64,000 nucleotides of DNA, taken from Deltaproteobacteria bacterium. GTDB lineage: Bacteria > Desulfobacterota > Dissulfuribacteria > Dissulfuribacterales > JALVPX01. Of this stretch, positions 11,514-28,236 are shown in pieces. Position 1 is the first letter of the stretch. Every line of letters begins with the position of its first letter. The position numbers were made by a program, and so were the translations under genes. Location: NCBI GenBank assembly GCA_027023445.1, contig JALVVK010000012.1, positions 1,139 to 65,138 of the forward strand, written 5' to 3'. The notes under the pieces are model-generated. The model had not been told where the DNA came from and made no database searches. It saw nothing but the letters and a program-made list of their open reading frames with translations.

Positions 11514-11735
11514 ATGCTTATTCTTACCAGGAAGGTAGGGGAAAAAATCCGCATTGGTGAAGAAATCGAAATCTCCGTGCTGGAGATAAAGGGCCGCCAG
11601 GCCAGGATAGGGATCAAGGCCCCCTCCGGCCTTCCCGTACACAGGGAAGAGGTTTTTAAAAAAATTCAGGAGCAGAACCTGAAGGCCGCCAGGGGAACTG
11701 GCACGGAGATCGATCTGGACATCATTCCTTTGTAG
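11514..11735 (+). CDS. csrA: Carbon storage regulator CsrA (flagellar-type)
   Basis: 'MLILTRKVGEKIRIGEEIEISVLEIKGRQARIGIKAPSGLPVHREEV' is the canonical CsrA sequence. Confidence 0.95.
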   Translation: MLILTRKVGEKIRIGEEIEISVLEIKGRQARIGIKAPSGLPVHREEVFKKIQEQNLKAARGTGTEIDLDIIPL

Positions 11736-11775
11736 GAATCCTGGACGATATTTGTTATCAACGAGGCGTTTTTTT

Positions 11776-12264: not shown

Positions 12265-14909
12265 TGCAGGATTCTTTCTTCCCCTGGAGGATTTCCCGTG
12301 CCGTCGAATGAAATTCTGTCCATGAACCGGGCTTGGCGGTCCGCAAAGGATCTGGCGCGGTCAAGCACTGCGGCCACGTCCACGATCAGCGCCACGGATC
12401 CGTCTCCCAGCACGGTTGAGCCGGAGAAGCCCGGCTGGTTAGTCAGATATTCTGCCAGGGGTTTTATGACCACCTCCTGCTGGCCCAGCAGCCTGTCCAC
12501 GCCAAGACCCGCCTCAGTGCCTCCGTGATTGACTATGACCACAAAGACCTTTTCTTTGTTCACGTCGGCGCCCGTTCCCCTGAATATCTTGCCCAGTCGT
12601 ATGAGCGGCATGGTTTTTTGCCGCACCGAGATAACCTCAAAGCCTTCTACAGAGCCAATGTCATCGGAGGTGAGTCTCACCGCCTCCTGAACCCCTGATA
12701 GCGGGATAGCCATGTTCTGCTTCCCTACCCGTACCAGAAGGGCCTGGATGATTGCCAGGGTAAGCGGTACCCGCAGCTCCATGGTTGTGCCGTGTCCCGT
12801 TTCGGAAAAGATCTTTATTACTCCTCCGAGGCGCTGGATGTTTTTCTTTACCACATCCATTCCAACACCCCTGCCGGATGTCTCTGAAACCGTCTCGGAG
12901 GTGCTTATTCCAGGATAAAAGATGAGTTCCCAGATTTTTTCTTCACTGAGTGATTGAGCCTCTTCCCTGCTCATCAACCCGAGGGATACGGCTTTTTGTG
13001 TCAGTGCTTCTCGGTTTAGGCCACGGCCGTCATCAGTAACACGGATAAGCACAAAGTTGCCCTCCTGGGAGGCTGAAATTTCCAGCCGTCCGATTTCGTT
13101 TTTCCCCATGCGTGCTCGTATTTCAGGGGGTTCAATCCCATGATCAACGGCATTTCTGACTATGTGAAGCAGGGGATCGGCAACCTGTTCCATCATGCGC
13201 TTGTCCAGGCTTGTATCTGTGCCTGCCATTACAAGCTCAACTTTTCTGCCCAGTTTCCTGGAAAGATCCCTGACTATCCTGGGATAGCGGTTGAACAGGT
13301 GGCTTACAGGCAGCATGCGCATGTTCATGACCCGGTCCTGAAGGTCCCTGACCGTCCTTTCAAGAGCGTCCACCTGTTCCCCCATTCGTATGAAGAGGTT
13401 TTTCAACGGTTTTAGTTTCCTTGCCCCCATTATGCGCTGGTCCATCCATTCCCTGTATAACAGCCTGGTTTCTTCTGCCATTTTTGTAAGGGAGGATTTG
13501 ATTACTACAAGATCTCCCACGTCACCCAGAAGATCTTCCAGTTTGTCCAGGTCAATGCGTACGGTCTGCGCCTGGAATATTTCCGGGGCCGTCGTCTTCC
13601 CCGGCGCTGTTTCCGTCTCCGGTCTCTTCATGCCAGGTGATTCATCGCCTGGATCTTTGGCCCGGGGTATTTCTTCGGGAACTTCTCCAAAAAAGTTGTC
13701 GATGGCATTATCAAGATCATCAATAATGGTAGACGCCTGGTCAGGCTTCTCCTCAGCAGGCATGCCCACATCAGGACCGGATTCAAGTCCTGGCAGGATG
13801 GCCTGCAGGCCAGACCACATTTTTTTGAGCGGTGCCGGATCAAAGCCACCTCCCTTGCCCTCAGAGGACAGTGCCTCGGTGAGTCGTTCCTCCCATTCAT
13901 TCAACAGGCTGACCACGTCATCATAGTCCATGTAATGGGCAGAGCTTTTCAGCTTTTCAATGGCATCCTGACATCTGATGGCCCAGTCCCGTTGAAAATT
14001 TTCAGGAATGTTCGCAAGGGGACCGGAGATTTCCCTGGCAAAATCAAGAAAAATTTCATAAAGTTCCCTGTCTTCTTCCCTGAGTTCCCCTGGCGCGGGC
14101 TGGTCGGCTTTTCCTGGTTCCTCTTTTACCTGTACAGGTTCAATTATTCCCTTGAGAAGGCCGTTCAACCTGTTCAGAAAGTCCGACGGTACAGGTGCTT
14201 GAGGGCTTGATTCCAGTTGCTGTCTCAATCCGGCAAGCCCTTTTAACAGTTCTTCTATGCCCACGTAATGGGTTACCCTTTCCATGTCCCTTACGGTTGC
14301 GACCAGTGCTTCAGCCTTCACCTCCGGCTCTCGTATGATCTGGAGAACCCTGGAATACAGGGCGTTCATCTCCTCCGTGTATATGGAATAGAGTTCCTGG
14401 TCCTCATCGGGTTCCTCGGCCGGAGAATATGCGGCAGGGTCTTCAGGCTTCCCGGGCGTGTTGTCAGTTTTGACCGCAGTGGCTTTTTCGCTGTCTTCAG
14501 GCATGTTCCCGGATGGTTTTTCCTGTGTCCCTGTTAATGCGGCAAGGGCGTCTGTCAGGGCGGTTATATCTGTGTTTTCATCTTTAGTGGAGGCTATTTC
14601 CCCTAAGAGCTGCTTCAGCAGGTCAACTCCCTGGAATATCATGTCCATGATTTCAGGAGTAAGCTCCATGTCTCCGGACCGTATTTTGTGGAAAAGGTTT
14701 TCCATTGCGTGGGAGAGTGTGGCAGTTCGGTCAAGCCCCATGTATCCGGCGGCGCCCTTTATGCTGTGCAGGTTCCGGAAACAGTCGTTAAGAAGGTTCG
14801 TGTTGTCCGGGGTCTGCTCAAGCAGCAGGAGATTTGGTTCCAGTTCCTCCAGGTTTTCCCTGGTTTCCACAACGAAGTCTTGCCACATTTCCTGGTCAAA
14901 GTCGCTCAT
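12261..14909 (-). CDS. cheA: Chemotaxis histidine kinase CheA (882 aa, extended N-terminal region)
   Basis: Hpt motif 'FRNLHSIKGAAGYMGL'. Dimerisation segment 'TVRIDLDKLEDLLGDVGDLVV'. HATPase motifs 'HIVRNAVDHGIE', 'DDGRGL', 'GRGVGMDVV'. C-terminal CheW-like domain '..VLGDGSVALIVDVAAVL'. Confidence 0.95.
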   Translation of the reverse strand: MSDFDQEMWQDFVVETRENLEELEPNLLLLEQTPDNTNLLNDCFRNLHSIKGAAGYMGLDRTATLSHAMENLFHKIRSGDMELTPEIMDMIFQGVDLLKQLLGEIASTKDENTDITALTDALAALTGTQEKPSGNMPEDSEKATAVKTDNTPGKPEDPAAYSPAEEPDEDQELYSIYTEEMNALYSRVLQIIREPEVKAEALVATVRDMERVTHYVGIEELLKGLAGLRQQLESSPQAPVPSDFLNRLNGLLKGIIEPVQVKEEPGKADQPAPGELREEDRELYEIFLDFAREISGPLANIPENFQRDWAIRCQDAIEKLKSSAHYMDYDDVVSLLNEWEERLTEALSSEGKGGGFDPAPLKKMWSGLQAILPGLESGPDVGMPAEEKPDQASTIIDDLDNAIDNFFGEVPEEIPRAKDPGDESPGMKRPETETAPGKTTAPEIFQAQTVRIDLDKLEDLLGDVGDLVVIKSSLTKMAEETRLLYREWMDQRIMGARKLKPLKNLFIRMGEQVDALERTVRDLQDRVMNMRMLPVSHLFNRYPRIVRDLSRKLGRKVELVMAGTDTSLDKRMMEQVADPLLHIVRNAVDHGIEPPEIRARMGKNEIGRLEISASQEGNFVLIRVTDDGRGLNREALTQKAVSLGLMSREEAQSLSEEKIWELIFYPGISTSETVSETSGRGVGMDVVKKNIQRLGGVIKIFSETGHGTTMELRVPLTLAIIQALLVRVGKQNMAIPLSGVQEAVRLTSDDIGSVEGFEVISVRQKTMPLIRLGKIFRGTGADVNKEKVFVVIVNHGGTEAGLGVDRLLGQQEVVIKPLAEYLTNQPGFSGSTVLGDGSVALIVDVAAVLDRARSFADRQARFMDRISFDGTGNPPGEERILH

Positions 14910-14913
14910 GTTT

Positions 14914-15300
14914 TTATCCTTGTATCAGATTCAACAGGCCATTGTGTTCATTTTTCCTTATGAAGCCAAGGGCATTCAGTTCCTTGACCTGCCGGACAAT
15001 TTCAGGGTCGGTCATGAGACTCATGAAAATTATCCTTGCCCCCGGGTCCCATGCCTTGATAAGCCTGGCCCCGGTTATGCCGTCTGTGCCCCGCATGGTA
15101 ATATCCATGATTACATAATCCGGATGACATTTTTTATAGAGTTCATAGCCTTCGGACCCATCCGCGGCCTGTCCGGCGACCAGGTGTCCGGCTTTTTCAA
15201 GGACGCTTATGATCCTTTTCCTCATAAAACTGGAATCATCTACCACCAATACCCTTGACACGGTTCCATCCTTTAAAATTTTTGTCAGGAGGTGTTTCAC
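14914..15300 (-). CDS. cheY: CheY-like single-domain response regulator
   Basis: 128 aa. 'VLVVDDSSFMRK' and 'DYVIMDITMRGTDG' are receiver-domain motifs with the acceptor Asp in place. There is a 4-nt overlap with the upstream gene and a 4-nt gap to cheA. Confidence 0.85.
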   Translation of the reverse strand: MKHLLTKILKDGTVSRVLVVDDSSFMRKRIISVLEKAGHLVAGQAADGSEGYELYKKCHPDYVIMDITMRGTDGITGARLIKAWDPGARIIFMSLMTDPEIVRQVKELNALGFIRKNEHNGLLNLIQG

Positions 15301-16751
15301 ACCATAAAATGAAGGCCATTTAAAAGTTCTGTCCTCAGAATTTCCTCGTAAGAGTCGATTTCCGGCAAAATATCCTCGACTTTTCCCGGTTCCAGGAATC
15401 CGTCCGAAAGGCCGGATTCCAGCACAGCTTCAAGAGGCGCCGGATGGAGACATGTTTCCGGTTTCTGCACATAGACCCTGCCCCGTTTCTTCCTTACCGC
15501 AGCAAGGCCTTCCCGCGCGACATCTGCTCCGGACAGCAATATTACATAAAGGCCCGGGCCAAAAAAATCGGCCGCTCCGGACAGCAGGTTTTCAATGTCC
15601 AGAGGACTTTTTCCACCCGGAGTCTGCTGGATCACGCATTCTCCAGGGGTTCCGGTCAACTCGAAACAACGGTCCATCCCGGCCAGCCAGCATACACCCT
15701 GGGCCAGAAGACCCGGGTCCTTTATTTCAGCCACGGTTCCCCTGCAAACGCTGTTCAGGTATTCTGCCACCGGGGATGTCAGGTCTGTGTCCATGTCCTG
15801 TATCATCAGGCAGGCGTAATTTCCTTTGCTGAACACCCTTGGAAGAAGTTTCTGTATTTCCAGCAGCCCCCCTGCCCCTCCGATTATAATCAACAGGTGT
15901 CGGGATGGCGGTCCGGGAGAGGATTTTCGGGAGACCGGCCTGAGGGTTCTGGCCCTGCGGATATTTTTTATTTTAAGCTCTTTTGTCAGAGTCGCGTATT
16001 TTGCGATTCTTTTTGAGGTCTTTTCCCACGCGGCATCGTCCCGGGGCTTGGGAACGAAATCAACGGCTCCAAGACGCATGAAATCCATTATTAACGGCAG
16101 GTTGCTTTCAGACAGGCCGCTTATAAGCAGGACAGGAGCGGGTGACCTTATCATGATGTGTTTCAGTGTGAGGTCCCCTGCCATGACCGGCATGTTTATG
16201 TCCAGGGTGACAAGATCAGGGACATCATCCTGGATCAGCACAAGGGCCTCCTGTCCGTTTGATGCCTGGCCTATGACCTCTATGTGGTCCATGGATTCAA
16301 AGGTGCGACGGAGAGTCTTGCAGAAAAATGGGGAGTCATCCACTATCAGCACCCTGACCGGAGGCCGCCCTGTGTACCCGGTTTCCTGCTCGTTGTTCCC
16401 TTCATCCATGCGCCTCAGGGCCTCCATGACCAGAAAATTCCACGGCATTTCTATGGTCTGACTGTCTGTCCCTTCCTGGTTAAGGATAAAGGTGCCAGAG
16501 TTCCATTTCATGATGGAAAAAAAGGCCTCTGTCCCCGTATCCTCAGGAGAAACCGCGTGAACTACCTGACCGTTACTGAAATAGATTTTGCCCTGTTTTC
16601 TCCCATGTCGGATCAGGAGCCTCCTGTCTCTTCCTTCAAGGCATATGAACTGGATGAGTTCGGCCAGGGGTACCTGCTCCAAGACCCCGCTGAAACCATG
16701 CTCCGGTTCTTTAATGGAGTTTAAGCTCGGTTTAAGGGGGAACGAGGCCAT
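15297..16751 (-). CDS. DUF4388 (PATAN-like) + receiver + CheB-like domain protein (CheB-like 1, catalytic motifs degenerate)
   Basis: The N-terminus 'LAELIQFICLEGRDRRLLIRHGRKQGKIYFSNGQVVHAVS..GTEAFFSIMKWNSGTFIL' fits the DUF4388 pattern. REC motifs are 'VLIVDDSPF' and 'VTLDINMPVMAG'. The C-terminal domain is CheB-like, but it carries 'IGGAGGL', 'IQDMDTD' and 'LSGADVA' where CheB has GASTGG, QHMP and GMGxDG. Confidence 0.8.
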   Translation of the reverse strand: MASFPLKPSLNSIKEPEHGFSGVLEQVPLAELIQFICLEGRDRRLLIRHGRKQGKIYFSNGQVVHAVSPEDTGTEAFFSIMKWNSGTFILNQEGTDSQTIEMPWNFLVMEALRRMDEGNNEQETGYTGRPPVRVLIVDDSPFFCKTLRRTFESMDHIEVIGQASNGQEALVLIQDDVPDLVTLDINMPVMAGDLTLKHIMIRSPAPVLLISGLSESNLPLIMDFMRLGAVDFVPKPRDDAAWEKTSKRIAKYATLTKELKIKNIRRARTLRPVSRKSSPGPPSRHLLIIIGGAGGLLEIQKLLPRVFSKGNYACLMIQDMDTDLTSPVAEYLNSVCRGTVAEIKDPGLLAQGVCWLAGMDRCFELTGTPGECVIQQTPGGKSPLDIENLLSGAADFFGPGLYVILLSGADVAREGLAAVRKKRGRVYVQKPETCLHPAPLEAVLESGLSDGFLEPGKVEDILPEIDSYEEILRTELLNGLHFMV

Positions 16752-16755
16752 GGAA

Positions 16756-17856
16756 TTATTCCTTTCCCGTGCAGCGCCACAGCGATATGTGTTTTGATAA
16801 TTCTGAGGGGCTGTATGCCTTCACTCCAAGGTTTTCAATAATAAATCTGGGTAGTTCAGGTGACAGGCAGGTCTCCGGGGTCTGGGCCAGGATACAACCC
16901 TCATTTCTGATGACTTCTCTGGCCCCCGTCAGCCCTTTGTGTCCATCTCCCGAAAGGAAAATTGTCAGGGCGTCGTTACCCAGTACCTCGCTTGCGGAGA
17001 GCAGTAGAAGATCTATGGCGCCCTCTTCCTTCGAAAGATCGGTTCTTGGGGTCAGGTGCATGTAAAGGCTGTCTCCCTCTCTTTCTATGTGGGCGGCCTC
17101 ATCCTCACTTTTAAGGTAGATATGGCCTGCCTTCAGCCTTTGCCTGTTTCTTGCCCTCAGTGTCTTGAGCGGCGCGTAGCCTTTCAGGTATTCCGTGAAG
17201 GCATCCAGGTATCTGCCCTGAATCCCCATGGATATGATCAGGCTGGGCCTGAGATCCGGGGAAAGATTGGGAACCAGAGAAAGCAGAGCTGCGTATCCAC
17301 CAACAGAGGCATATATGATTACGGCGCACCGGGCGTCTTCCGCCTGTGCCTCAGATTCCACCTTCAATGTGTCCGTACCGGGTTTCAGGCGAAGATATCT
17401 TGCGGCTTCCAGGTGGACACGAGCGGCACGTTTCGCCTTTATCCTGAGAATGTCTGCCTGTTTCTCCAGGTCTTCACCTTCCTGATGGGAAGGCTTTTTG
17501 AAAAAATCCACCGCGCCGTAACGCAAGGCCTCAAATGTGACTTTTGACCCATCTGCGGTAAAGGCGCTTACCATGAGAGTTGGTATGGGATGCCGGATCA
17601 TTATGTGTTTTAATACCGTAAGCCCATTCATTCCGGGCATGTGCACATCCAGCGTGCACAGATCGCAGTGATTTGATGACAGGAAGGAAAGCGCCTCCCT
17701 GCCACTGAGCGCATAACCCAGGACCTCAATATCCGGGTCGTTGCCAAGAATTTTTTTCATGATTCTGCACATCATCGGGGAATCGTCCACGATAAAGGCC
17801 TTTATCCTGGATTTGCCTTCTCCTGGATGAGTGGAGTTAATTTGCTGGCTTGTCAT
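16756..17856 (-). CDS. Receiver + CheB-like domain protein (CheB-like 2)
   Basis: REC motifs 'AFIVDDSPMMCR' and 'CTLDVHMPGMNG'. The CheB-like domain has 'YASVGGY' (Ser kept), 'ISMGIQGR' (His position not conserved) and 'LSGDGHKG'. Confidence 0.8.
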   Translation of the reverse strand: MTSQQINSTHPGEGKSRIKAFIVDDSPMMCRIMKKILGNDPDIEVLGYALSGREALSFLSSNHCDLCTLDVHMPGMNGLTVLKHIMIRHPIPTLMVSAFTADGSKVTFEALRYGAVDFFKKPSHQEGEDLEKQADILRIKAKRAARVHLEAARYLRLKPGTDTLKVESEAQAEDARCAVIIYASVGGYAALLSLVPNLSPDLRPSLIISMGIQGRYLDAFTEYLKGYAPLKTLRARNRQRLKAGHIYLKSEDEAAHIEREGDSLYMHLTPRTDLSKEEGAIDLLLLSASEVLGNDALTIFLSGDGHKGLTGAREVIRNEGCILAQTPETCLSPELPRFIIENLGVKAYSPSELSKHISLWRCTGKE

Positions 17857-17994: not shown

Positions 17995-19071
17995 TCACCC
18001 TTTTTTGTTTGTCATCTGGTCCTCGATTCCTGCAGTCTCGGCATGTTTTTTCCCGAATGTCTCTATTTGAGTCCACAGGAGATGCTCTGATACCGGCTTG
18101 GCCACGCCGGCATCAAGGGCCAGACGGGCCGTCTGATCACAAACGCAATAACGGGGTTCAAGCACCAGGCTGAGTCCGTCCTTGTCCCTTATCGCCTTCA
18201 TTCCCCTGATGCCGTTTTCAGTCGTGCCGCCCAGGACTACCGCAGCCGCCCTGGATCCGTACACCATGGCAATTTCTTCGAGCATCTGGTCAAGATCCTG
18301 GTCTGGCCCCACTCTTACCCGGACTTTTTTGGACTGTTCACTTATCTGCAGGCTCCAGGGTTCCTTGATCCATGTGAGAAGACAGTTTCCTCTGTTCAAT
18401 GTAACAGGACTTGAGCATGAAACCTGCCATGGCAGTACCAGGTCCATTTCAGAAGTGTACGAGCGGAGGGCGTCTCCTGATAATCCCTGGCAGCAGAGGA
18501 AGGAGAGGGGCAGAGACGGGTTTATGTTGGCCAGCATGCGGATCAGGCAGGCGGATGCACCTATGTCAGCCACAACCGCCACGACCGCTCCTGGTTCAAT
18601 GTTTTCCTGATCGACCTTTAATGGTTCAACAGGGCGCTTGGCGCGTTTAATGGCCCGGCAATTAACCTTGGCCGCCTGTTTTACCAGCTGGGTTAATTCC
18701 CTTGCCTGGTTGCGGATATCATATGAAACCGTGCCGGAGGGCTTGGGGAAGAAATCTACCGCTCCCAGCCTGAGTGCCTCCAGGGTAATTTCACCCTGGT
18801 TGGCAAGAGCGCTTATCATTACAACCGGTCTCGGATCGCGTATCATAATGTGTTTGATGGTGGTGAGGCCATCCATAACGGGCATGTCCACATCCAGCGT
18901 GATGACATCAGGATTAAGCTCATCTATTATCCGGAGCGCTTCTTCCCCGTGTTTCGCAACCCCGATCACCTCTATTTCCCTGTCCCGGGACAGCATTTCC
19001 ACCAGGGCCTTGCGCATAAAGGCGGCATCATCCACGACCAGGGCCTTTATTTTTGATGTTCGGTCACCCAA
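17995..19071 (-). CDS. Receiver + CheB-like domain protein (CheB-like 3)
   Basis: REC motifs 'ALVVDDAAFMRK' and 'ITLDVDMPVMDG'. The CheB-like domain has 'IGASACL', 'CCQGLSGD' (no His) and 'LGGTTENG' (no Asp at the aligned position). Confidence 0.8.
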   Translation of the reverse strand: MGDRTSKIKALVVDDAAFMRKALVEMLSRDREIEVIGVAKHGEEALRIIDELNPDVITLDVDMPVMDGLTTIKHIMIRDPRPVVMISALANQGEITLEALRLGAVDFFPKPSGTVSYDIRNQARELTQLVKQAAKVNCRAIKRAKRPVEPLKVDQENIEPGAVVAVVADIGASACLIRMLANINPSLPLSFLCCQGLSGDALRSYTSEMDLVLPWQVSCSSPVTLNRGNCLLTWIKEPWSLQISEQSKKVRVRVGPDQDLDQMLEEIAMVYGSRAAAVVLGGTTENGIRGMKAIRDKDGLSLVLEPRYCVCDQTARLALDAGVAKPVSEHLLWTQIETFGKKHAETAGIEDQMTNKKG

Positions 19072-19089: not shown

Positions 19090-19944
19090 CTATGAAGCCA
19101 CAACGGCCCCCCAGCTCTGCTCTATTTCATCCCTTCTGGCCTTTAACTTGGCTGCCACTCGCTTGATCTGCGCCGGTTCAAGCCCAAGCCTTTTGGGAAC
19201 AAGCAGCTTTCCGTTGACCCCAAGTGATCCTCCATGCCCGATTTGAAGCTTATGGCACAATCCGTCTGCCAGAAACACAGCGGCCGCGGCCCTGGCATAT
19301 GGGCCCGCTCCTTGGGGGTGATGATGGTAGCGGACGACATTTATGAGCAGGTCGCTCAGCCCCCATCGGGCAACCAGATATCCGCCCACCTCTCCATGTG
19401 TCAGTCCGTATTGCATTTCCGCTTCCCAGAGAGGAATTTCCTTTTCCTTCTGAATGTTGAGAATCTCCCGGAATTCTTCGGTGAAGTAGAGACACATGAG
19501 AAAAATACCCAGGTCATGGAGCATACCGGCGGTGAAAAGTTCATCCTGATCCAGTTCTGGCAGGAGTTCGGCGAGCATTTTAGAGGTGGTGGCCACACCA
19601 ACTGAATGGATCCAGAGATCGGAGGTTTTAAATTCCTCAAAGCCAAGATCCCCTGAAAATGTTCCTGTCAGAGAAAGGCTGACCACGAGGTTGCGTACCT
19701 CCTCAAAGCCGAGAATCACTATTGCCCTTGCGAGACTGCTGACTTCTCCTTTAAGGCCGTAAAACGGGGAATTGGCCACCTTTAGAATCTTGGCGGTGAC
19801 CACAGGATCTTCCCGGATGATCCTGTCAAGGTCCTGTGCTGACGTGCTGACACTGTTAAGGCCGTCAAGTACCCGTTGCAGGGTGTGCGGTATGGTGGGC
19901 AGATCCTCTATTTTTTCAAGACGTTTTACAACGGAGATGGCCAT
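19090..19944 (-). CDS. HDOD domain protein (first gene of the che operon)
   Basis: 'LPTIPHTLQRVLDGLNSVSTSAQDLDRIIREDPVVTAKILKVANSPFYGL' and 'MLHDLGIFL..HGEVGGYLVARWGL' fit the HDOD pattern. Confidence 0.85.
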   Translation of the reverse strand: MAISVVKRLEKIEDLPTIPHTLQRVLDGLNSVSTSAQDLDRIIREDPVVTAKILKVANSPFYGLKGEVSSLARAIVILGFEEVRNLVVSLSLTGTFSGDLGFEEFKTSDLWIHSVGVATTSKMLAELLPELDQDELFTAGMLHDLGIFLMCLYFTEEFREILNIQKEKEIPLWEAEMQYGLTHGEVGGYLVARWGLSDLLINVVRYHHHPQGAGPYARAAAAVFLADGLCHKLQIGHGGSLGVNGKLLVPKRLGLEPAQIKRVAAKLKARRDEIEQSWGAVVAS

Positions 19945-20049: not shown

Positions 20050-20076
20050 TAAACTTCCAGTCCGCGGGGTCGATAA
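20050..20076 (+). promoter_or_regulatory. Candidate sigma-28 (FliA) promoter upstream of mglB
   Basis: TAAACTTC-N11-GTCGATAA compared with the consensus TAAAGTTT-N11-GCCGATAA gives 6/8 and 7/8 matches. It ends 73 nt upstream of the mglB ATG at 20150. Confidence 0.5.
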
Positions 20077-20149
20077 GGGATTAGAGAACAATAAAAAATC
20101 GTGGGAATGAAACACGTAAAGAGAAACATTAATTGAGAGGGCACCGCCC

Positions 20150-20551
20150 ATGTCAGACTTAGTATTGACTGCCCCGGTACTTGAGGAGGCCAGAAGCCAG
20201 ATTGAAAATGCGCTGATCAAGGCCGGGGTCCATACAGTACTTCTCATAGACGAAGCGGGCAACATTGTAGCGAGTTGCGGAGCGGAATCGGAACGGCTGG
20301 ACACAACGTCCCTTGCCGCTCTGGCCGCGGCAAATTTTGGTGCCACTTCCCAGATGGCAAAACTCATTGGAGAGGATGATTTTTCCCTGCTGTTTCATAA
20401 GGGCAAGAAGGACAGCATCCATTTCGCCAGGGTCGGGGGCAATCTGATACTTATTACCATATTCGGAGACGATGTCTCCCTTGGGCTGGTAAGGTTAAGG
20501 GTGGCTCAGTTGGCCGAGACCATCAGAGGAGTTTTTGGATTCGAAAGTTGA
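20150..20551 (+). CDS. mglB: Roadblock/LC7 domain protein, MglB-like GTPase-activating partner
   Basis: 133 aa. 'LEEARSQIENALIKAGVHTVLLIDEAGNIVASCG' fits the Roadblock/LC7 pattern. It lies 3 nt upstream of an MglA-type GTPase, the same order as Myxococcus mglBA. Confidence 0.8.
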   Translation: MSDLVLTAPVLEEARSQIENALIKAGVHTVLLIDEAGNIVASCGAESERLDTTSLAALAAANFGATSQMAKLIGEDDFSLLFHKGKKDSIHFARVGGNLILITIFGDDVSLGLVRLRVAQLAETIRGVFGFES

Positions 20552-20554
20552 GCT

Positions 20555-21175
20555 ATGGCACTTATTGATCTCAGTAAAAAAGAGGTGCACTGTAAGATTG
20601 TTTACTATGGTCCTGGCCGCTGCGGGAAAACCACCAATCTGCTCTATATCTATAATGCCATGAACAGCGCGGCCAGGGGAAAGATGCTTACCATAGAGAC
20701 CAAGGGAGACAGAACGCTTTTTTTTGATCTGCTTCCTCTTAATCTGGGCAAGGTGAATGGTTTTGACATTCGCATACAATTATACACCGTGCCCGGTCAA
20801 ACCATATACGAGGCCACACGCAAGCTGGTGCTTAAAGGCGTTGACGGGCTGGTGTTTGTGGCAGACTCCCTTAAGGTAAGGCAGAACAAAAACATCGAAA
20901 GCATGGATGATCTCAGAAGAAACCTCAGGGAACACAACCTGGGGATGAACGAGATACCCATAATACTTCAATATAACAAGCGTGATCTTGCCACTACCCC
21001 CATTCCCACCCTGACGGTGGAAGAGCTGGAACACGATCTTAATCAGGAATTGAAAACCAGGGGTTTTGAGGCTGCAGCAACAAAGGGAATCGGGGTGTTT
21101 GAAACCCTGAAGGAAATCAGCAAACGCACGGTCAGGTATGTGGTAAGCAAGCATCTGATGCCTGGAAGTCGTTAG
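20555..21175 (+). CDS. mglA: MglA-type Ras-superfamily small GTPase
   Basis: The sequence 'EVHCKIVYYGPGRCGKTTNLLYIYN', 'GDRTLFFDLLPL', 'LYTVPGQTIYEATRKLVLKGVDGLVFVADS' and 'QYNKRDL' is close to M. xanthus MglA as recalled. This includes the MglA-specific TVPGQ in place of DxxGQ. Confidence 0.9.
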   Translation: MALIDLSKKEVHCKIVYYGPGRCGKTTNLLYIYNAMNSAARGKMLTIETKGDRTLFFDLLPLNLGKVNGFDIRIQLYTVPGQTIYEATRKLVLKGVDGLVFVADSLKVRQNKNIESMDDLRRNLREHNLGMNEIPIILQYNKRDLATTPIPTLTVEELEHDLNQELKTRGFEAAATKGIGVFETLKEISKRTVRYVVSKHLMPGSR

Positions 21176-21203
21176 GCAGCGTCCTTCATAAAGGAGAACG
21201 GTT

Positions 21204-22967
21204 ATGGGCCAGTCGGACAAGCTCCCTGATACAGAAAATTTCACCAGAGAGGTGGAAGACGTAATAGATGATCTTTTCGCCCCTTCAAAGACCATTGAAA
21301 TTGATCCCCTTACTAATGAAATAAAGGAAGTGGACAGGGCTCCCGAGCGATCTCCGGACGAATTGTCTCTGGAGCCGGACACTGCCGTGGAAAAAGGGGA
21401 GGATGTTCATCCGTCTGAAAATGAGGCGCCGGCAGTGGAGGAAGAAACAGCATCTTCTACCTCCGGGCCGGTTGAGTTTGACCTGGATCTGGAACTTGAG
21501 CTTGAACCCGAGCCCGAATCAGGGCCGGAGTCCTCTGTTCAGCAGGCATCGGGCAGTGAGGCGGCGGAAAAGGATTCAGACGGCCTTTTGAACCAGATAC
21601 AGCAGGCAATATGGACTCTTGAATGGGAGGTCACGGAAGAAAGTGTACGAAATCTGAAGGACATGCTCAAAGGCCTTGATGGCAGCGCCACATCCTCTGA
21701 TCCCGGGTTTGGCCAGGTGGTCAGTGAAATGATCCAGGTGCTGAGCGATATGGAGCGGGACGCGGAAAATGTCCCCACCTCGGCTCCCGTGGCCCTTAAG
21801 AAGGGGGTTGAATATCTTATGGCCTCGGCTGCCGGTGAGTCGGGTCCGGACAAGTTGCGCGAGCTTTTTGATCACGCGGTTTCCGAGCTGAGCGCCGCTT
21901 TTGCGAGCCAAGAAGAAATATGTGAAAGCCCTGCCTCTGGCCCTGACACAGGCGAACAAATGGAAACCCTGGATCTGGAAATCGAGATGGAACCGGAGTC
22001 CGAATCAGAGCCGGAAACGAAACCGGAACATGAATCCACCGGGCCTCAAGTGAGCGGAAAGGCTCAGGCGGAAACGATGGCACCGGTTCCTGCCGGCTCG
22101 GGGAGATTATCACAGGCGCAACAAAGGTCTTCAGCTGGTCTGTCTGTTGAGACGCCAGACGAGCCTGAGCAAATACCTGTCAGGGAAGAAAAGGAATCAT
22201 CAAAGATACTTAATGAACATCTAAATACGTTGCGTGACTGCGTACGCCGTATTCGTCCTGTGGAAGACCTGCTGGCCAGAACCAGGGGGATGGCAAAACT
22301 TCAGGTTTTTCTTGGAGATCTCAGGACTCGTCTTGAAAGACAGATTGAGCTACTTGAGCATGGGCCGGCCAGAGGAGTCCCTGTGGCGCAGGTTCCATCA
22401 GGGGGGAATGAAACCGTAGAGGTCGTTCCGGGTGAGGCTCAGGAGGTAAAACGGGCGGAAACGAACCGGCCCGGTTCTGAATCCAGGGGGCAGGAGGAGG
22501 GAAAATGTCCCTGGAGGGAGCTGTTCCTTGCCAGGAGAGGGCGCATTACAGTTGGGCTCATCATGGAGGAGGTTGCCTTTCATGGAACCGTTCCCTTTTG
22601 GGCCGGCTCCGGCCTTCTGAATCAGGAAAAAGTCATTCTCAAACAGCTGAAACCATGGCCCTGGTCAAAATTGAGCTCCATGGTTCAGGGAAGCCTTCTG
22701 GCTGTAAAGGAGGAAGACCTGGCACAAATGGAGGTGCCGGTACTGAATTTAAACGATCCTGCCTCAAAAGCGGAGAGAGGCCGTAACGTGGTAATCCTGA
22801 GTCAGGGGGAAAAAACCGCGGCTATCTTCCTGGATTCCGAACCGGATTATTTCAGCCTGAAGGCAGAGCACACCTATAAAGCCGCGGATGCGGAAGGTTT
22901 TCTGGAAGGGGTGTTAAAAGTGGATGGCAATACTATCCACATCATATCCGTGGCCGGGATGAAATGA
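21204..22967 (+). CDS. Highly acidic 587-aa protein of unknown function with a divergent C-terminal CheW-like domain
   Basis: AAAGGAG RBS. There are two E/P/L-rich acidic tracts, 'FDLDLELELEPEPESGPES' and 'LDLEIEMEPESESEPETKPEHES'. The C-terminus 'ELFLARRGRITVGLIMEEVAFHGTVP..VPVLNLND..NVVILSQGEKTAAIFLDSEP..FLEGVLKVDGNTIHIISV' follows the CheW strand pattern. That domain call is by-eye only. Confidence 0.6.
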   Translation: MGQSDKLPDTENFTREVEDVIDDLFAPSKTIEIDPLTNEIKEVDRAPERSPDELSLEPDTAVEKGEDVHPSENEAPAVEEETASSTSGPVEFDLDLELELEPEPESGPESSVQQASGSEAAEKDSDGLLNQIQQAIWTLEWEVTEESVRNLKDMLKGLDGSATSSDPGFGQVVSEMIQVLSDMERDAENVPTSAPVALKKGVEYLMASAAGESGPDKLRELFDHAVSELSAAFASQEEICESPASGPDTGEQMETLDLEIEMEPESESEPETKPEHESTGPQVSGKAQAETMAPVPAGSGRLSQAQQRSSAGLSVETPDEPEQIPVREEKESSKILNEHLNTLRDCVRRIRPVEDLLARTRGMAKLQVFLGDLRTRLERQIELLEHGPARGVPVAQVPSGGNETVEVVPGEAQEVKRAETNRPGSESRGQEEGKCPWRELFLARRGRITVGLIMEEVAFHGTVPFWAGSGLLNQEKVILKQLKPWPWSKLSSMVQGSLLAVKEEDLAQMEVPVLNLNDPASKAERGRNVVILSQGEKTAAIFLDSEPDYFSLKAEHTYKAADAEGFLEGVLKVDGNTIHIISVAGMK

Positions 22968-22996
22968 ACAAAGCCTAAGGTTTAAGGAGTTTGCAA

Positions 22997-25318
22997 GTGC
23001 AAGAAGCCGATATACAAAACAGGCTTTTAGAGGCCGATCTTTATCTCAACCAGGGGCTGGCTGAGGAGGCCAGGGCCGTGTACAAAAAGATTTTGGCCGA
23101 GCTTGGGGATAAGGATGAGAAACTCAGTGAAGAATTGAGAGACCGAATCGGGAAATTGAAAGAGCAGGGTAATGCTGAATCCCCTGGCAAAGATTCAACC
23201 GAGGAATCAGATTCCCATATTGAGGAACAAAAGAGATTTGAAAGCTGCCTTGGCCTGATAGAAGCCGGGTTTCATAATGAGGCCATAGATGAATTAAAGG
23301 CCCTGCTGGACACGGGGTTTAATCCCGGTCTCGTAAACACCAAGATAGCGGAGTGTTATCTACGGCTGGACATGCCCTTTGACGCGCTTGATCATTTTGA
23401 GGATGCCCTTAACGCCCCGGATCTTTCTGTTCATGACCGGTTGGAATTATTATATCAGGTTGCCCTCTGTCATGAGAAAACCGGTGCGGTTGCCCTGGCA
23501 ATCGAGGCGCTGAACGAGATCAAACGCCTGGACCCCTCATACAGGAATGTGTCTCAGCGCCTGGAGCAGCTAACGCAGACCGCTCAAAAGTATGGACGGT
23601 TTTACTATCTTATCAGAAATGGGTTTTTGTCGGATGAACAGCTTGAAAGAGCCAAGGAAATGGCCAAGCAGAGCAAAAAATCCATTGAGAGTACCCTGCT
23701 GAACCAGTTTGGTATAGACAAGGCCGATCTTGGTAGATCGCTCAGCGAATATTATAAGTGTCCCTTTGTTGAATTTAACGAGATGGAGCTTTCTTCCACT
23801 CCCTCTTGTATCCACGGGATAAAGGAACATTTTTTCCGCAGTAACTGCTGCGCTCCAATCAGGGAGAAGGCCGGCGCCCTTCTCGTTGCGGTGGATAACC
23901 CTCAGGACCTGGTAAAGATAGATAATATAAGGCGGGTCCTCAAGGCAAAAAGCTTTGAATTCGCCGTGGCACTCAAGGAAGACATAGACAAGTTTACGGA
24001 TTATTTCTATGGAAAGTATTCCATCGGGGGTGAGGAAGACGATGTCTTTGAACATCTCGAGCTGGTGGAAGAAGAGGAAGATACGTTCGAAGAAGAGGAA
24101 GAGGTCGTATCTGACGCGGATAGCGTAGTTGTGCAGATGGCCAACAAAATTATCGAGGACGCCTATGTCCGTCAGGCATCGGACATACACATGGAGTCCA
24201 TGAGTGGCAAAAGGGGAGTCCTCATCAGGTTCCGCATTGACGGCGACTGCGTGCGATATCAGACAATTCCATATAATTACAAAAAGGCCCTTATTTCAAG
24301 AATCAAGATTATGTCCAACCTTGATATAGCCGAGAAACGGTTGCCCCAGGATGGAAAAATCAAATTCAGAATACGCTCTGGAAAGGTGATCGAGCTTCGT
24401 GTGGCAACCCTGCCCACAACCGAGGGAAACGAAGACGTGGTTCTGAGGATCCTGGCGTCTTCCGAGGCCATGCCACTTGACAGAATAGGGCTTCTGGATG
24501 AGAGCCTTGCCACCTTAAAAGGTCTTCTTGAAATGCCTTATGGCCTTATGCTCGTGGTGGGGCCTACTGGATCTGGTAAAACCACCACGCTTCACGCGGC
24601 CCTTGGATATATCAACAGGCCCAACAAAAAGATCTGGACGGCCGAGGATCCTGTTGAAATCATGCAGGACGGCCTGAGGCAGGTTCAGGTCCGTCCAAAC
24701 ATAGATCTGACCTTTGCCCGTGTGTTGAGGGCGTTTCTGAGGGCGGACCCCGACGTGATAATGGTTGGTGAGACCCGCGACGAGGAAACGGCAAACACAG
24801 TGATAGAGGCCTCTCTTACGGGCCACCTGGTATTTTCAACCCTTCATACCAATTCTGCTCCGGAAACAGTGACAAGACTTCTTGGCATGGGCATGGATCC
24901 CTTTAATTTCGCGGACGCCCTGTTGGGTGTTCTTGCCCAGAGGCTTGTAAAGCGTCTTTGTTTCAAGTGCAAGGAGGCCTATGAGCCGGATGAAGAGGAA
25001 AAGGCGCTTCTGATAGAACAGTTCGGGCATCATCCCTCAAATCCCCTGACAATGGAACAGCTGAATGGGATAACCCTTTACCGGCCCAAGGGATGTTCTG
25101 TATGCAACCAGACCGGATATAAGGGAAGGCTTGCCATCCATGAACTCCTGGTTGCTGATGACGGACTGAGAAAGCTCATCCAGAAAAGGAGACCTGTGGG
25201 AGAGATAAGGGATCATGCCCTGGCGAATGGAATGTTGACCCTTAAACAGGATGGTATCATCAAGGTCCTTAAAGGAGATACTGACCTCAAGCAGGTCAGG
25301 GCGGCCTGCATAAAGTAA
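22997..25318 (+). CDS. PilB/GspE-family secretion/pilus-extension ATPase with N-terminal TPR array
   Basis: Walker A 'GPTGSGKTTTLHAAL', Asp box and Walker B 'IMVGETRDEETA', His box 'GHLVFSTLHTN'. Tetracysteine motif 'CFKCKE..CSVCNQTGYKGR'. A T2SSE_N-like segment is 'LSDEQLERAKEMAKQSKKSIESTLLNQFGI'. The N-terminal ~200 aa are TPR-like ('EADLYLNQGLAEEARAVYKKIL', 'AECYLRLDMPFDALDHFEDAL'). GTG 22997 lies 7 nt after AAGGAG and is preferred over TTG 22991. Confidence 0.9.
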   Translation: MQEADIQNRLLEADLYLNQGLAEEARAVYKKILAELGDKDEKLSEELRDRIGKLKEQGNAESPGKDSTEESDSHIEEQKRFESCLGLIEAGFHNEAIDELKALLDTGFNPGLVNTKIAECYLRLDMPFDALDHFEDALNAPDLSVHDRLELLYQVALCHEKTGAVALAIEALNEIKRLDPSYRNVSQRLEQLTQTAQKYGRFYYLIRNGFLSDEQLERAKEMAKQSKKSIESTLLNQFGIDKADLGRSLSEYYKCPFVEFNEMELSSTPSCIHGIKEHFFRSNCCAPIREKAGALLVAVDNPQDLVKIDNIRRVLKAKSFEFAVALKEDIDKFTDYFYGKYSIGGEEDDVFEHLELVEEEEDTFEEEEEVVSDADSVVVQMANKIIEDAYVRQASDIHMESMSGKRGVLIRFRIDGDCVRYQTIPYNYKKALISRIKIMSNLDIAEKRLPQDGKIKFRIRSGKVIELRVATLPTTEGNEDVVLRILASSEAMPLDRIGLLDESLATLKGLLEMPYGLMLVVGPTGSGKTTTLHAALGYINRPNKKIWTAEDPVEIMQDGLRQVQVRPNIDLTFARVLRAFLRADPDVIMVGETRDEETANTVIEASLTGHLVFSTLHTNSAPETVTRLLGMGMDPFNFADALLGVLAQRLVKRLCFKCKEAYEPDEEEKALLIEQFGHHPSNPLTMEQLNGITLYRPKGCSVCNQTGYKGRLAIHELLVADDGLRKLIQKRRPVGEIRDHALANGMLTLKQDGIIKVLKGDTDLKQVRAACIK

Positions 25319-25384: not shown

Positions 25385-27772
25385 TTACTCTATGACCGAG
25401 ACCTTAAAGCGTTTGATCTCCTTCTCCATTTCGCGGGCCTTGGACAGCATGTCTTCCATCGAGGTCAGCGCTCCCTGCGCGCCTTCAGCATTTTGAGCCG
25501 CTACTTCCGCCATTTCCGCCATAAGCTGCTGGAGTTTTGAGCTGCGTTCCCTCTGCATGGATGTCCTGTTTGTAATTTCAGAAGAGTTATCCACGACCTT
25601 GGCGATTGTTTCAACTGCGGTTTTGGTAGTAAGGCTGCTGGAATTTGCGGCGCCCGTGATCTGTTCACTGAGTTCCATGAGCTTTTTAATGGATTTCTCG
25701 GCCTCTGAACGCCTTACCGCCTGTTCTTCCGTCATATCCACGATGCTGCTGGCAAGGGCCTTGAGTTCATCCGTGGATTGCAGGAGGCCCTGGGTATCCG
25801 ATGCCTGCTTGGCCGATACCTCGGACATGCGGGTGGTAACCTCTGCTCCGGTCTGCACGGCCTGAAGAATTTTTCCCAGGGCATTAGCGCTTTCCCTGGT
25901 AAACTGCATTCCCTTTTCAACATTCCTGGCGCTTTCTTCAATAAGAGCCTCGATTTCCTTGGTGGATTCAGTGGTTCTTTCGGCCAGTTTCCGGATTTCC
26001 TCTGCGACCACTGCGAATCCTCTGCCGTGCTCACCCGCCCTGGCCGCCTCTATGGACGCGTTAAGCGCCAGCAGGTTTGTCTGCTCCGCAATGTCCGAAA
26101 TAAGATCCACGATTTCCTTGACCTGTTCAGAGCTTTGTGCAATTGCCTCCATGCCCTTGACCGTCTGTTCCATGGCCTTGCCACCTTCCCTGGCGCTGGA
26201 CATTGCGGCCTGTGCCTGCTCTGCGGCCTCCCTGGACTGGTCCGCCACGTCCTGGAGCTCGGCTGCCATCCTGTGAAGGGATTCTGTCGTCTTGGTGGCG
26301 GCCTCTGACTGGGCCACGGCCCTGGCCTGGACCTCTTTGGCCGTGTTTCCCATGGCTGCCACGGTCTCAGCCGTTCTGTGCGCGCTTTCTTTGTTGTCGT
26401 TGGATATTTCAGTGATTCTTTTGCTGGTTTTTGCCATTTCCTCGATGACCTGGGCGGCTTCCTGGGCCAGACGGGCCGAAGACTCGGCGTGCACCGCTAC
26501 CTCAGAGGCAGTTTTCCCCATGACGGCAACCCGTTGCATGACATCTTTCGCCGCTTCTGCCTGGGATGTCGCGTCTTTTCCTATTCGGGTCGCGACATCA
26601 TGCACTTCCTGGCTGGCGGCGGCAAAATTTCCTGTTGCCTGGATCATGTTTCTGAAGGTGGCCTGGAGTTTGTCCAGGAATTTATTCACCGTTTCGCACA
26701 TCTGCCCGATCTCATCACCGCTTTTCACCTTGAGGCGTTTTGTGAGATCCAGTTCCTGGGCCGTGCGGCTCAAAAGTGTGGCGGCCTCCACCACGGGGTT
26801 GGCCACGCTCTTGTCCATGAGATAGGCAACCACTAACAGGAACAGAAAAATTAATGAATCGGCAATGAATACATGTCTGGACAGGCCTTTCAGGGCGCTG
26901 AATAAAGCTGATCTGGGTACCTCAACCACGGCTGTGAGCCCGGGAAGCCTGAGGCCGTTTCCGGGAGTAATCTCCATCTTTGAGGCAATAAATTCCTTTT
27001 CCGGCCCCACCGGTATAAACCTGCCTTCTGGCTTTAAAAGCCCTTCCCGCGCGTTGGCGGCCAGCGATTCGCCAATATGGCGCGATTCGGGATGCAGAAA
27101 ATAGCGTCCGGAACCGTCTATAATATAGGCTGTGCCGGCCATGTTTCTCAGCCCCTGTATGGTGGTTTCAAGTATCCCGTTAAGGTATTTCCAGGACAGA
27201 AAGGCTGTTATCGTCCCGGTAACCCGGCCCAGCTTGTTAAGCGGGGCCTGCATGACGATGGCCCACTCTGAATCAGAGCCTTTTCCCTGACTTTTGAGCC
27301 CGGTCCACCTGACAGGGCCAAGGAGTCTTACACTGCCATTTTCAGGTATGCCGAACCAGTTTGTTTTACTGAGATCCAGTCCTGTGTATCCATTGCTGCT
27401 GGCAGAAAGGATTTTGCCCTCCCGGTTTGTAATAAAAAGTGCCTGATAATATGGATACTGGTCCACCAGATCCCTTAACAGCCTGCCTGAGGCGGGCTGG
27501 GGCATGCCAGTTTCAACGGTCTGCCTTACCGCCTCCATGGTGCCGTATGTCCTTAAATCATTTGCCCGGTCGTTCAGAAAAATCGAAATTTTGTCGGCAA
27601 GCGCCCTGGAATTTTCTTCAAGGGTCTGTTCCCCCTGGCTGCGCAGGAGGTCACGCTGAACAAAATACAGATACCCCTGGGCGGCAATAGTAACTACCAT
27701 GACCATGAAGATTATTGCCAGGGCCTTGGTTTGAATGGGCCAACTGCCAGTACTCTTAAACCTGCCTTTCAT
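25385..27772 (-). CDS. Methyl-accepting chemotaxis protein (two TM helices, Cache-like periplasmic domain, HAMP, long signalling domain)
   Basis: The hairpin-tip motif '[33 protein letters not shown]' is present. TM1 is '[15 protein letters not shown]' and TM2 is '[17 protein letters not shown]'. There is an ATGA overlap with cheW. Confidence 0.95.
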
Positions 27773-28236
27773 CAGGTTGCCTCCTTGACAAGATGGTTCT
27801 CCGGCACTGTTTCAGGGATGGTTTTGCCAGTGGCGGCAAGGCTCTGAAAAAGTCCGTGGATATCGAGAACATTGATTTTGGTGCCTGTATCAATTGTGCA
27901 GACACCCTGTACATATGGGCCTGGCTCGATGGATTCATCATCACCGAGAAAAACCCCCTGAACAACTTTCATGATGCTGTCCACCATGAGACCAAGGCTG
28001 TCCCCCTTGTATGAAAGCAGCAGGATCCTGGGCGATTTGTTTATGCTGTCGTTCGAAAGAAGCAGCTCTGCTCCCCTGATGACAGGCACAATGTTTCCCC
28101 GCACGTTTATCAACCCGGCCACCAGGGGATGGGCATTGGGAAGGAAGCCTATATCTTTTGAGGTAATTACATGATCGACCCATTTAAGGCGCACCCCCCA
28201 GGTTGTGCCTTGAATTTCAAACAGGACCAGATTCAT
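27772..28236 (-). CDS. cheW: Chemotaxis coupling protein CheW
   Basis: 154 aa. '[21 protein letters not shown]', '[15 protein letters not shown]' and '[22 protein letters not shown]' fit the CheW pattern. Confidence 0.9.

Follow-up and report, generated by a model that had tools for sequence, protein, structure and literature searches.

How could an MglA/MglB switch reach a pilus motor? This question is raised by four consecutive genes, mglB-mglA-X-tpr-pilB, on a 64,000-nucleotide stretch of contig JALVVK010000012.1 from a Dissulfuribacterales genome of the phylum Desulfobacterota (this whole stretch is hereafter "the window", and positions refer to it unless a related locus is named). We interpret the four genes as a conserved Desulfobacterota operon that would place a type IV pilus (T4P) extension-type ATPase under the control of the MglA/MglB switch, with input from Che and PATAN signaling proteins, and we hold this interpretation to be probable, if only modestly so. 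The original prediction, made from the letters of the sequence alone, had described four close, co-directional genes with intergenic gaps of 3, 28, and 29 nt, and this layout was reproduced by our open reading frame (ORF) call. Between positions 20150 and 25318 on the forward strand, mglB (20150-20551, 133 aa) encodes a Roadblock/LC7 protein and predicted GTPase-activating partner of MglA, mglA (20555-21175, 206 aa) an MglA-type small GTPase, X (21204-22967, 587 aa) an acidic, cytoplasmic, predicted scaffold from an unannotated family, and tpr-pilB (22997-25318, 773 aa) a PilB-type hexameric ATPase with an N-terminal TPR domain. The last gap is counted to a GTG at 22997, which is most likely the start of the ATPase gene: an AAGGAG Shine-Dalgarno sequence lies 7 nt 5' of it, and the same start was called in a twin assembly (GCA_054004815.1) that is 99-100% identical to the window. 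An alternative start, TTG 22991, is less likely.

To evaluate the association of these four genes, the window proteins were run by tblastn against the neighborhoods of six X relatives and against 61 loci from species-representative genomes (individual loci are given below by L numbers). Overall, mglB-mglA-X-tpr-pilB was found in the same order and on the same strand in 26 of 26 distinct loci, i.e., distinct X genes with enough DNA on both sides, with median gaps of 2, 42, and 4 nt. At L011, where our script had flagged mglA as missing, tblastn finds the gene. The four genes are thus a strictly co-conserved unit, beyond what chance would produce, and the gene-neighborhood check suggested along with the original prediction came out in its favor. 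Identity to the window proteins reached 67-85% for MglA (58 loci), 48-83% for MglB (57 loci), and 50-71% for TPR-PilB, and only 22-31% for X; MglA and TPR-PilB were better conserved across loci than the products of the che genes described below. All species-representative records were from Desulfobacterota, as judged by their titles, and the host groups include Desulfobulbia, Dissulfuribacterales, SEEP-SRB2, metagenome-assembled genomes (MAGs) of the "Thermodesulfatator" type, and the isolate "Desulfobacterota bacterium M19". Thermodesulfobacteria are also among the hosts, including the cultured Thermosulfurimonas marina: through distant X relatives, the same block was reached in the complete genome of this species and on a metagenome contig encoding the X protein of Thermosulfuriphilus ammonigenes.

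The first two genes bear all the sequence hallmarks of the Myxococcus switch. The mglB product matched Pfam Robl_LC7 (E=2.7e-13) and, in phmmer searches, Myxococcus xanthus MglB (6h5b_B, E=4e-23, covering residues 26-130 of 160) and Thermus MglB (E=2e-11); it scored 58 bits against the NCBIfam Thermus-type MglB equivalog (cut-off 200) and is not an equivalog of that model. Residues 1-192 of the mglA product aligned to residues 1-187 of M. xanthus MglA (E=6.4e-63), and its motifs comprise a P-loop GPGRCGKT, GDRTLFFD with the intrinsic Arg in switch 1, TVPGQ with the Thr-for-Asp replacement and the catalytic Gln, and NKRD, all of which are kept in 54 family members. The two genes, 3 nt apart in the window, were adjacent in all 57 loci that hold both. 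By these features we identify them as bona fide mglB and mglA, in line with the original assignment of a Roadblock/LC7 protein followed by an MglA-type GTPase.

The fourth gene had been described as a 773-aa PilB/GspE-type ATPase with an N-terminal TPR array, and domain searches, alignments, and AlphaFold2 models agree: Pfam searches returned T2SSE (E=6.3e-120), MshEN (E=2.1e-13), and weak TPR matches. The TPR domain spans approximately aa 1-205 (22997-23611) and is followed by a domain of MshEN/GSPII fold at approximately aa 206-340 (23612-24016), an acidic linker, and the ATPase core at aa 376-773. Residues 204-772 aligned end to end with the type IVa pilus (T4aP) PilB/PilF structures 3jc8, 5tsg, and 6f8l (E=1e-107 to 1e-114), and 52 ATPase sequences kept the Walker A motif GPTGSGKTT, the Walker B motif, DPDVIMVGETRD, GHLVFSTLHTN, the Asp and His boxes, and the tetracysteine CxxC...CxxC zinc motif. 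In the AlphaFold2 model of the first 342 residues (predicted local distance difference test, pLDDT, 85.5), a TPR superhelix precedes the GSPII/MshEN fold, for which Foldseek returned PilF-GSPIIB (TM score 0.64) and MshE 5htl (TM score 0.68). The TPR domain itself yielded only weak MamA-type TPR matches among PDB sequences, and a word-indexed protein search with the N-terminal 342 aa retrieved only eight proteins, most of them partial. One protein from Thermosulfuriphilus sp. (P0038, 367 aa, named "GspE/PulE/PilB domain-containing protein" in its source) has the TPR and MshEN-like parts without an ATPase core, and could be a split gene or a frameshift.

We searched the family for the 24-residue motif of the MshEN c-di-GMP receptor domain, given in the MshE literature as RLGxx(L/V/I)(L/V/I)xxG(L/V/I)(L/V/I)xxxxLxxxLxxQ. 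It was found in 0 of 54 family members with either a strict or a relaxed pattern, in a search run without a positive control, and the NCBIfam c-di-GMP motif model scored 21.8 bits on the ATPase (cut-off 38). Direct c-di-GMP sensing by the MshEN-like domain is therefore doubtful, given the absence of the canonical motif from all 54 sequences.

The third gene, X, encodes a protein with an isoelectric point of 4.43, 19.8% Asp plus Glu, and no transmembrane segment. No Pfam or NCBIfam model matched it, a search of PDB sequences with an X profile hidden Markov model returned nothing, and ten distant X relatives searched with Pfam likewise showed no domain. In an alignment of 30 homologs, conservation is concentrated in four blocks, and the acidic linkers between them vary. 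The blocks are an N-terminal motif (aa 10-43), made up of a helix and a hairpin, with the consensus FTxEIExTIDDLFxPxKxIEIDPLTxE; a bundle of five helices (aa 122-238) in which W141-E142 is invariant; a long hairpin of helices (aa 326-386); and a beta-rich C-terminal domain (aa 433-587) whose predicted fold is CheW/CheA-P5-like. In the AlphaFold2 model the folded parts reached pLDDT >85 (approximately 80-93 for the C-terminal domain) and the linkers were disordered. The top five Foldseek matches of the C-terminal domain were all CheW or CheA-P5 (E=2.5e-5 to 5e-4, TM score approximately 0.53), the best being CheW 8c5v_E (E=2.5e-5, TM score 0.53). The bundle matched CheA P1/Hpt structures (3kyi_A and 1i5n; TM score 0.63, E approximately 0.08), at a level where generic four-helix bundles score alike; it has no conserved phospho-accepting His in the 30-homolog alignment, and neither Pfam nor the AlphaFold2 model of X contained a HATPase domain. 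From these modeled folds we tentatively suggest that X may be a kinase-less CheA-type scaffold.

Close relatives of X are few: only 35 clusters among 5.8 billion proteins, all unnamed. A profile search of 1.84 billion representatives returned 83 matches at E<1e-30 and 128 at E<1e-10, and matches weaker than about E=1e-13 were heterogeneous. Two of the distant matches have no informative mglAB context, lying beside cytochrome c3 and a binding protein (P0138) or on a 2.6-kb contig (P0115).

Neighborhoods of distant relatives were examined directly and through a metagenome scan, the loci from which were characterized with tblastn and Pfam. The gene for a 387-aa protein related to X (hhalign probability 97.9%) comes after genes for PATAN, Roadblock, Roadblock, and MglA (58% identity with the window MglA) and before one for a free 238-aa TPR protein. 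This free protein matches aa 10-210 of the window ATPase (E=8e-20), and the match stops exactly where the MshEN-like domain starts. In 15 related contigs (L088-L102), MglB-MglA-X is followed by a TPR gene wherever the contig reaches that far, and in L090 and L094, the two of these contigs scanned with Pfam, the TPR is fused to a Ser/Thr kinase. TPR-PilB appears again in a distant low-GC group (L077-L086) with the order Roadblock, MglA, short X, three PATAN, Cache-HAMP, cytochrome c3, X, and TPR-PilB, and in L103 and L105 a PilB-type gene lies directly upstream of mglB-mglA-X. In several lineages, then, mglBA is followed by X and TPR, and it is the enzyme joined to the TPR that varies. No other argument for joint action of MglA, X, and the TPR domain is as strong as this constancy of X and TPR beside a changing enzyme, which also indicates that the TPR-PilB fusion records a functional link.

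Two details of these distant cassettes are worth recording on their own. The genes for TPR-Ser/Thr kinases (L090 9942-12203, L094 9779-11701, and L075 2320-3954) are on metagenome contigs that are not Desulfobacterota-like (GC 0.44-0.62). The operon in L081 (61-10082) and L086 has a GC content of 0.33 and two X paralogs, in the order Roadblock, MglA, X (362 aa), PATAN, PATAN-like, a 117-aa ORF, PATAN, Cache-HAMP, cytochrome c3-like, X (468 aa), and TPR-PilB (783 aa).

Next to the four-gene unit lies a layer of signaling genes. The original prediction had placed the block between a divergent operon (HDOD, three CheB-like proteins, CheY, CheA) and a convergent MCP-cheW pair, and Pfam searches of the flanks returned exactly these genes. 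On the reverse strand, the divergent operon begins with an HDOD-domain protein (19090-19944, Pfam HDOD 1.6e-54), followed by a receiver (REC) protein with a degenerate CheB-like domain (17995-19071; Response_reg 1e-21, CheB_methylest 5e-14), a second REC-CheB-like protein (16756-17856, recognized by alignment to CheB 6ymz), and a third in which an N-terminal PATAN domain precedes REC and CheB-like domains (15297-16751; DUF4388 1.9e-21, Response_reg, CheB_methylest). A single-domain CheY-like response regulator (14914-15300, Response_reg 5.7e-21) and, by Pfam, a CheA histidine kinase with Hpt, dimerization, HATPase, and CheW-like P5 domains (12261-14909) complete it. Convergent to the block are a methyl-accepting chemotaxis protein (MCP) of dCache-HAMP-MCPsignal architecture (25385-27772, reverse strand, Pfam) and CheW (27772-28236, reverse strand, Pfam). 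In CheA, a spacer of about 340 aa separates the Hpt domain (aa 7-106) from the dimerization domain (aa 448-530), and spacer residues 175-258 gave a weak, non-significant profile match to the X helix bundle (E=0.025).

As working chemotaxis CheB proteins, the three CheB-like proteins did not hold up, and they are better described as pseudo-methylesterases without the Ser-His-Asp triad. In the first, the family consensus has neither the GASTGG nor the QHMP motif; in the second, compared with CheB 6ymz, the Ser is kept and the catalytic His and Asp are replaced by Gly and Lys; and in the third, compared with CheB 1a2o, Ser164 is replaced by Gly, His190 by Asp, and Asp286 by Val. All three REC domains are intact, and the divergent che operon contains no CheR. 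We rule out that these proteins run methylation-based adaptation, as the triad is absent and CheR is missing. Since the triad has been lost, REC is intact, and there is no CheR, the sequences of the CheB-like domains are better read as those of phosphorylation-controlled interaction domains than as those of adaptation enzymes.

Across genomes, the divergent HDOD/REC-CheB-like/CheY/CheA operon was present in 16 of 23 loci with ≥8 kb upstream, a PATAN gene was found inside the che operon in 16 of 23, CheA was co-conserved with the block in 24-25 loci, and an HDOD gene was divergent from mglB in 34 related loci. At five loci, two of them from SEEP-SRB2 MAGs, an Hpt protein and an HD-GYP-type protein were divergent from the block. 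PilZ and/or PATAN or REC-PATAN genes directly follow tpr-pilB in L027, L041, L055, L061, and L062, the accessory genes of T. marina encode REC-CheB-like and PATAN-REC proteins and an Hpt-HATPase kinase, and four loci have nothing recognizable around the block. Where present, the accessory layer is always a signaling one (phosphorelay, PATAN, c-di-GMP-type domains) yet interchangeable, and the invariant core is the four genes. The HDOD, HD-GYP, and PilZ neighbors suggest a second-messenger input.

Other neighbors are confined to few loci. At both thermophile loci, that of T. marina (L112, CP042909.1, 1512073-1533380) and L113, the module lies directly beside dissimilatory sulfite reductase genes (two NIR_SIR and DsrD). 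In isolate M19 (L062, 7079-8443, reverse strand) and its relatives L055 and L061, a dynamin-family GTPase gene is divergently upstream of mglB, and a FapA-like gene and PilZ and PATAN genes are nearby.

The flagellar side of the context is likewise local. In the window, flagellar genes for rod, ring, and hook-associated proteins (flgFGAHIK, with csrA and fliW) occupy positions 92-12264, and beyond this contig and its twin (L008) no locus had flagellar genes beside the block. An MCP gene, with or without cheW, follows tpr-pilB only in the twin L008, L007, L009, and L069. We thus rejected the flagellar and MCP-cheW context as a part of the unit, since it is not conserved among related loci; of the proposed embedding between chemotaxis operons in a flagellar setting, the divergent che operon (16/23) is the recurrent component, and the flagellar genes and MCP-cheW are local or lineage-specific additions.

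A similar split applies to the sigma-28-like promoter that had been proposed for the block. A scan of the window with the pattern TAAA-N15-GNCGATAA gave a single match in the 64 kb, TAAA-N15-GTCGATAA at 20050-20076 on the forward strand, where 0.01 was expected; this sigma-28 (FliA)-like motif (TAAACTTCCAGTCCGCGGGGTCGATAA), assigned by consensus match only, ends 73 nt upstream of mglB. The motif of the proposed promoter is thus present and unique here, and it recurs, in relaxed form, in only about 10 of 51 related mglB-upstream intergenic regions, compared to 0.5% in shuffled sequences. In six regions it has the orientation of mglB, at 100-117 nt before the start codon in five (including L007, L030, L054, and L065) and, as a weaker match, at 43 nt in L055; in four others (L002, L018, L024, and L028) it is on the opposite strand, facing the che operon. 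These motifs suggest FliA control of the block in some lineages only. Scans for terminators and sigma-70 promoters inside the block returned background levels only.

The remainder of the window holds unrelated housekeeping genes, among which no component of a pilus or secretion machine was found, along with some features at a distance from the block. Among the flagellar genes, a 91-aa protein (730-1005, forward strand) corresponds to just the C-terminal portion of FlhB (Pfam Bac_export_2, positions 262-335 of 335); a short EscU/YscU/HrcU-like protein is present in all genomes of sulfur disproportionators compared in the Dissulfurimicrobium genome paper (PMC8780430). The FlgK-like hook-associated protein (6322-10545, forward strand) is unusually long, at 1407 aa, and has an internal Flagellin_IN motif. 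The GC content is 0.639 at 44-46 kb and 0.456 at 46-48 kb, in surroundings of approximately 0.52-0.57, and the low-GC stretch, which includes a gene for a PEP-CTERM protein (46429-47142), may be an island or insertion.

How the four proteins and their signaling neighbors would work together can be outlined from gene content, conservation, domain identities, and predicted folds; every contact in the scheme is one that we infer. MglB would set the GTP state of MglA, switching it off, and MglA-GTP would bind directly to the TPR domain of the ATPase, which would be the fused counterpart of SgmX in Myxococcus and Bd2492 in Bdellovibrio. X may scaffold the GTPase and the TPR-ATPase together and, in lineages with the divergent operon, could dock this complex to the chemosensory array through its CheW-like domain. 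Sensory input would come from a Che-like phosphorelay made of CheA, CheY, and the three phosphorylatable REC proteins with dead CheB domains. Phosphorylated PATAN-REC would then contact the ATPase in its N-terminal region, much as Synechocystis PATAN regulators contact PilB1, and the other REC-pseudo-CheB proteins might perhaps also modulate the ATPase through this region. The ATPase would finally engage a pilus platform encoded elsewhere, with the output being when, and at which pole, it does so.

Several observations weigh against this scheme. The link to a pilus comes from the family of the ATPase alone, because no pilus genes lie beside the block. Pilin, PilC, PilMNOPQ, and secretin domains were absent from every large ORF of the window in a Pfam search, as had been foreseen, and neither in the window nor, with the exception of L032, in some 60 related loci did a PilC, PilM-Q, pilin, or PilT gene adjoin the block. 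At L032, from a SEEP-SRB2 MAG, a second MshEN-T2SSE (MshE-like) ATPase of 545 aa and a secretin are convergent to tpr-pilB (14173-17324, reverse strand) and are followed by a transposase. Calling the module "self-contained" was thus too strong, and with no platform protein, pilin, or secretin beside the ATPase in any locus but this one, the machine it drives must be encoded elsewhere. The ATPase also scores below both NCBIfam equivalogs, with 502.9 bits against PilB TIGR02538 (cut-off 675.65) and 486.7 bits against GspE TIGR02533 (cut-off 630.25), scores by which it is a distinct subfamily relative to the PilB equivalog, and Foldseek searches with the TPR model returned generic TPR proteins only and no SgmX-like structure. 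As for X, its description as a very acidic 587-aa protein with a CheW-like end stands in its acidity, length, and predicted fold. The likeness to CheW is limited to the predicted fold and finds no counterpart at the sequence level: when X, either whole or divided into four sub-domains, was compared by hhalign with alignments of CheW and CheA made from the loci, the probabilities were ≤10%. X is also present in cassettes without che genes nearby, which makes array docking uncertain, and the sigma-28-like promoters and flagellar neighbors leave room for a link to swimming.

Such a link would have the module serve flagellar motility or placement, or a switch between swimming and life on surfaces, as a member of the FliA regulon, with the Che operon acting as a swimming chemotaxis pathway. 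The sigma-28-like promoter, found ahead of mglB in the window and in five relatives and ahead of the che operon in another four, would fit this scenario, as would the adjoining flgFGAHIK, csrA, and fliW. We nonetheless consider it very unlikely: apart from the twin of this contig no related locus has flagellar flanks, the motif is missing from most of the related intergenic regions, and the Che operon has neither CheR nor an active CheB. In addition, we know of no flagellar system that uses a PilB-type ATPase or MglAB. It is also quite improbable, in our estimation, that the ATPase drives another type IV filament or a type II secretion-like machine, e.g., an MSHA-like pilus (in the MSHA operon, the TPR protein MshN precedes MshE), or is a signaling ATPase without a filament, with MglAB and X gating secretion or adhesion. 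This possibility draws on the match of the MshEN-fold domain to both MshE-N and PilF-GSPIIB, the GspE model scoring nearly as high as PilB, the MshE-like ATPase and secretin convergent to the block in L032, and the frequent c-di-GMP-related neighbors (HDOD, HD-GYP, PilZ). However, the best full-length matches of the ATPase are T4aP PilB and PilF, and none of the 54 family members has the canonical MshEN c-di-GMP motif.

Finally, the ATPase may simply be the sole housekeeping PilB of the cell, equipped with a TPR extension, in which case mglBA would be a neighbor by vertical inheritance, X an unrelated conserved neighbor, and there would be no dedicated module. Consistent with this, the core can be aligned along its whole length with housekeeping T4aP PilB proteins, the genome report of Dissulfurimicrobium hydrothermale describes a single pilB that is adjacent to neither pilC nor pilT (PMC8780430), and a second PilB paralog was seen only in L032. 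An inherited pilB neighborhood would, however, hardly yield an mglB-mglA-X-TPR order that recurs in distant lineages with the TPR free or fused to a kinase, and synteny holds across several orders while both flanks change. We therefore regard this explanation as unlikely; being the sole PilB would in any case be compatible with MglAB control, and would remove only the word "dedicated" from our interpretation.

A broader and more tentative proposal, which we see as possible although not probable at this stage, goes beyond MglA/MglB control of a PilB-type motor. X and TPR could be a general, hitherto unrecognized effector-adaptor pair of MglA/MglB through which the GTPase is plugged into different outputs, namely a PilB motor, a free TPR, or a Ser/Thr kinase. 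The X of Desulfobacterota would then act as a CheA-like scaffold without a kinase that physically ties the chemosensory complex to the GTPase and motor, and the TPR-PilB fusion would reveal the contact missing from the MglA-SgmX-PilB model. The operon suggests how the MglA/MglB switch reaches the pilus motor: a TPR fused to PilB in one operon with mglBA is a natural experiment that predicts the touching surfaces of switch and motor, and the two known routes to PilB, via MglA-TPR and via PATAN, are side by side in one locus. It also defines an unannotated family, X, whose genes come after mglBA in many bacteria not yet in culture and in no fewer than two cultured thermophiles that have complete genomes. 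For sulfur-disproportionating and methane-seep syntrophic Desulfobacterota, in which pili have been proposed to matter (PMC8780430), it offers a first handle on surface behavior.

Our literature search returned no description of this operon, of an mglBA-linked TPR-PilB fusion, or of X. To this extent the original prediction is borne out, but the system is not an unmatched one: its parts map onto known pairwise links, MglA-TPR adaptor-PilB in Myxococcus and Bdellovibrio and PATAN-PilB N-terminus in Synechocystis. In M. xanthus, MglA and SgmX are both required to bring PilB to the leading pole; SgmX, whose C-terminal TPRs are bound by MglA-GTP, is also required for pilus formation. Contact of PilB with either SgmX or MglA was not detected there, and the mechanism was called unknown (PMC7519303, PMC11580455). 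The Myxococcus MglAB-SgmX-PilB pathway with its Frz input thus resembles our locus in the GTPase and its GTPase-activating partner, in a TPR between MglA and a PilB-type ATPase, and in an associated Che-type phosphorelay. It differs in that its genes are scattered and SgmX is a separate protein of 1,060 aa (PMC11580455), whereas here a single operon has the TPR fused to the ATPase, and X has no described counterpart. Bdellovibrio offers a second case of MglA and a cytoplasmic TPR protein linked to a pilus process: its MglA binds Bd2492, which is needed for a pilus-dependent process (PMC3983030), but Bd2492 is encoded with tamAB rather than mglA, and there is neither MglB nor an ATPase fusion.

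PATAN domains of response regulators bind the N-terminal domain of PilB1 in Synechocystis (bioRxiv 10.1101/2021.06.11.447907), and a survey of prokaryotic small GTPases noted that this MglA group has variable neighborhoods, with mglA/mglB occasionally near PATAN genes (PMC4316618). The cyanobacterial Tax/Pix systems share with our locus a Che-like operon with CheY and a PATAN-REC regulator; unlike here, their PATAN-REC lacks a CheB-like domain, and they possess neither MglAB nor X nor a TPR fusion. The predicted make-up of X can be compared with CheA3, which in Rhodobacter sphaeroides has P1 and P5 domains and no kinase core. X similarly combines a predicted P1-like bundle and a P5/CheW-like domain without an ATPase domain, and the CheA3 P1 (3kyi_A) is among its structural matches, yet no His is conserved in the X bundle, P1 is matched weakly (E about 0.07), and X has no sequence homology to CheA or CheW. 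For the MglB-MglA-X-TPR-kinase cassettes, the comparison is with mglBA-masABK of M. xanthus, where the gene for MasK, a kinase that interacts with MglA, lies beside mglBA (PMC3546991). The masABK genes are oriented divergently to mglBA, MasA and MasB sit in the membrane and do not resemble X, and the paper mentions no TPR in MasK (PMC3546991). Taken together, because its parts map onto known pairwise links, we view the system as a known kind with a new wiring: MglAB control over a pilus motor, with chemosensory input, is known, and what is new within this kind is the compact, fused layout, along with the X family and the pseudo-CheB/PATAN phosphorelay.

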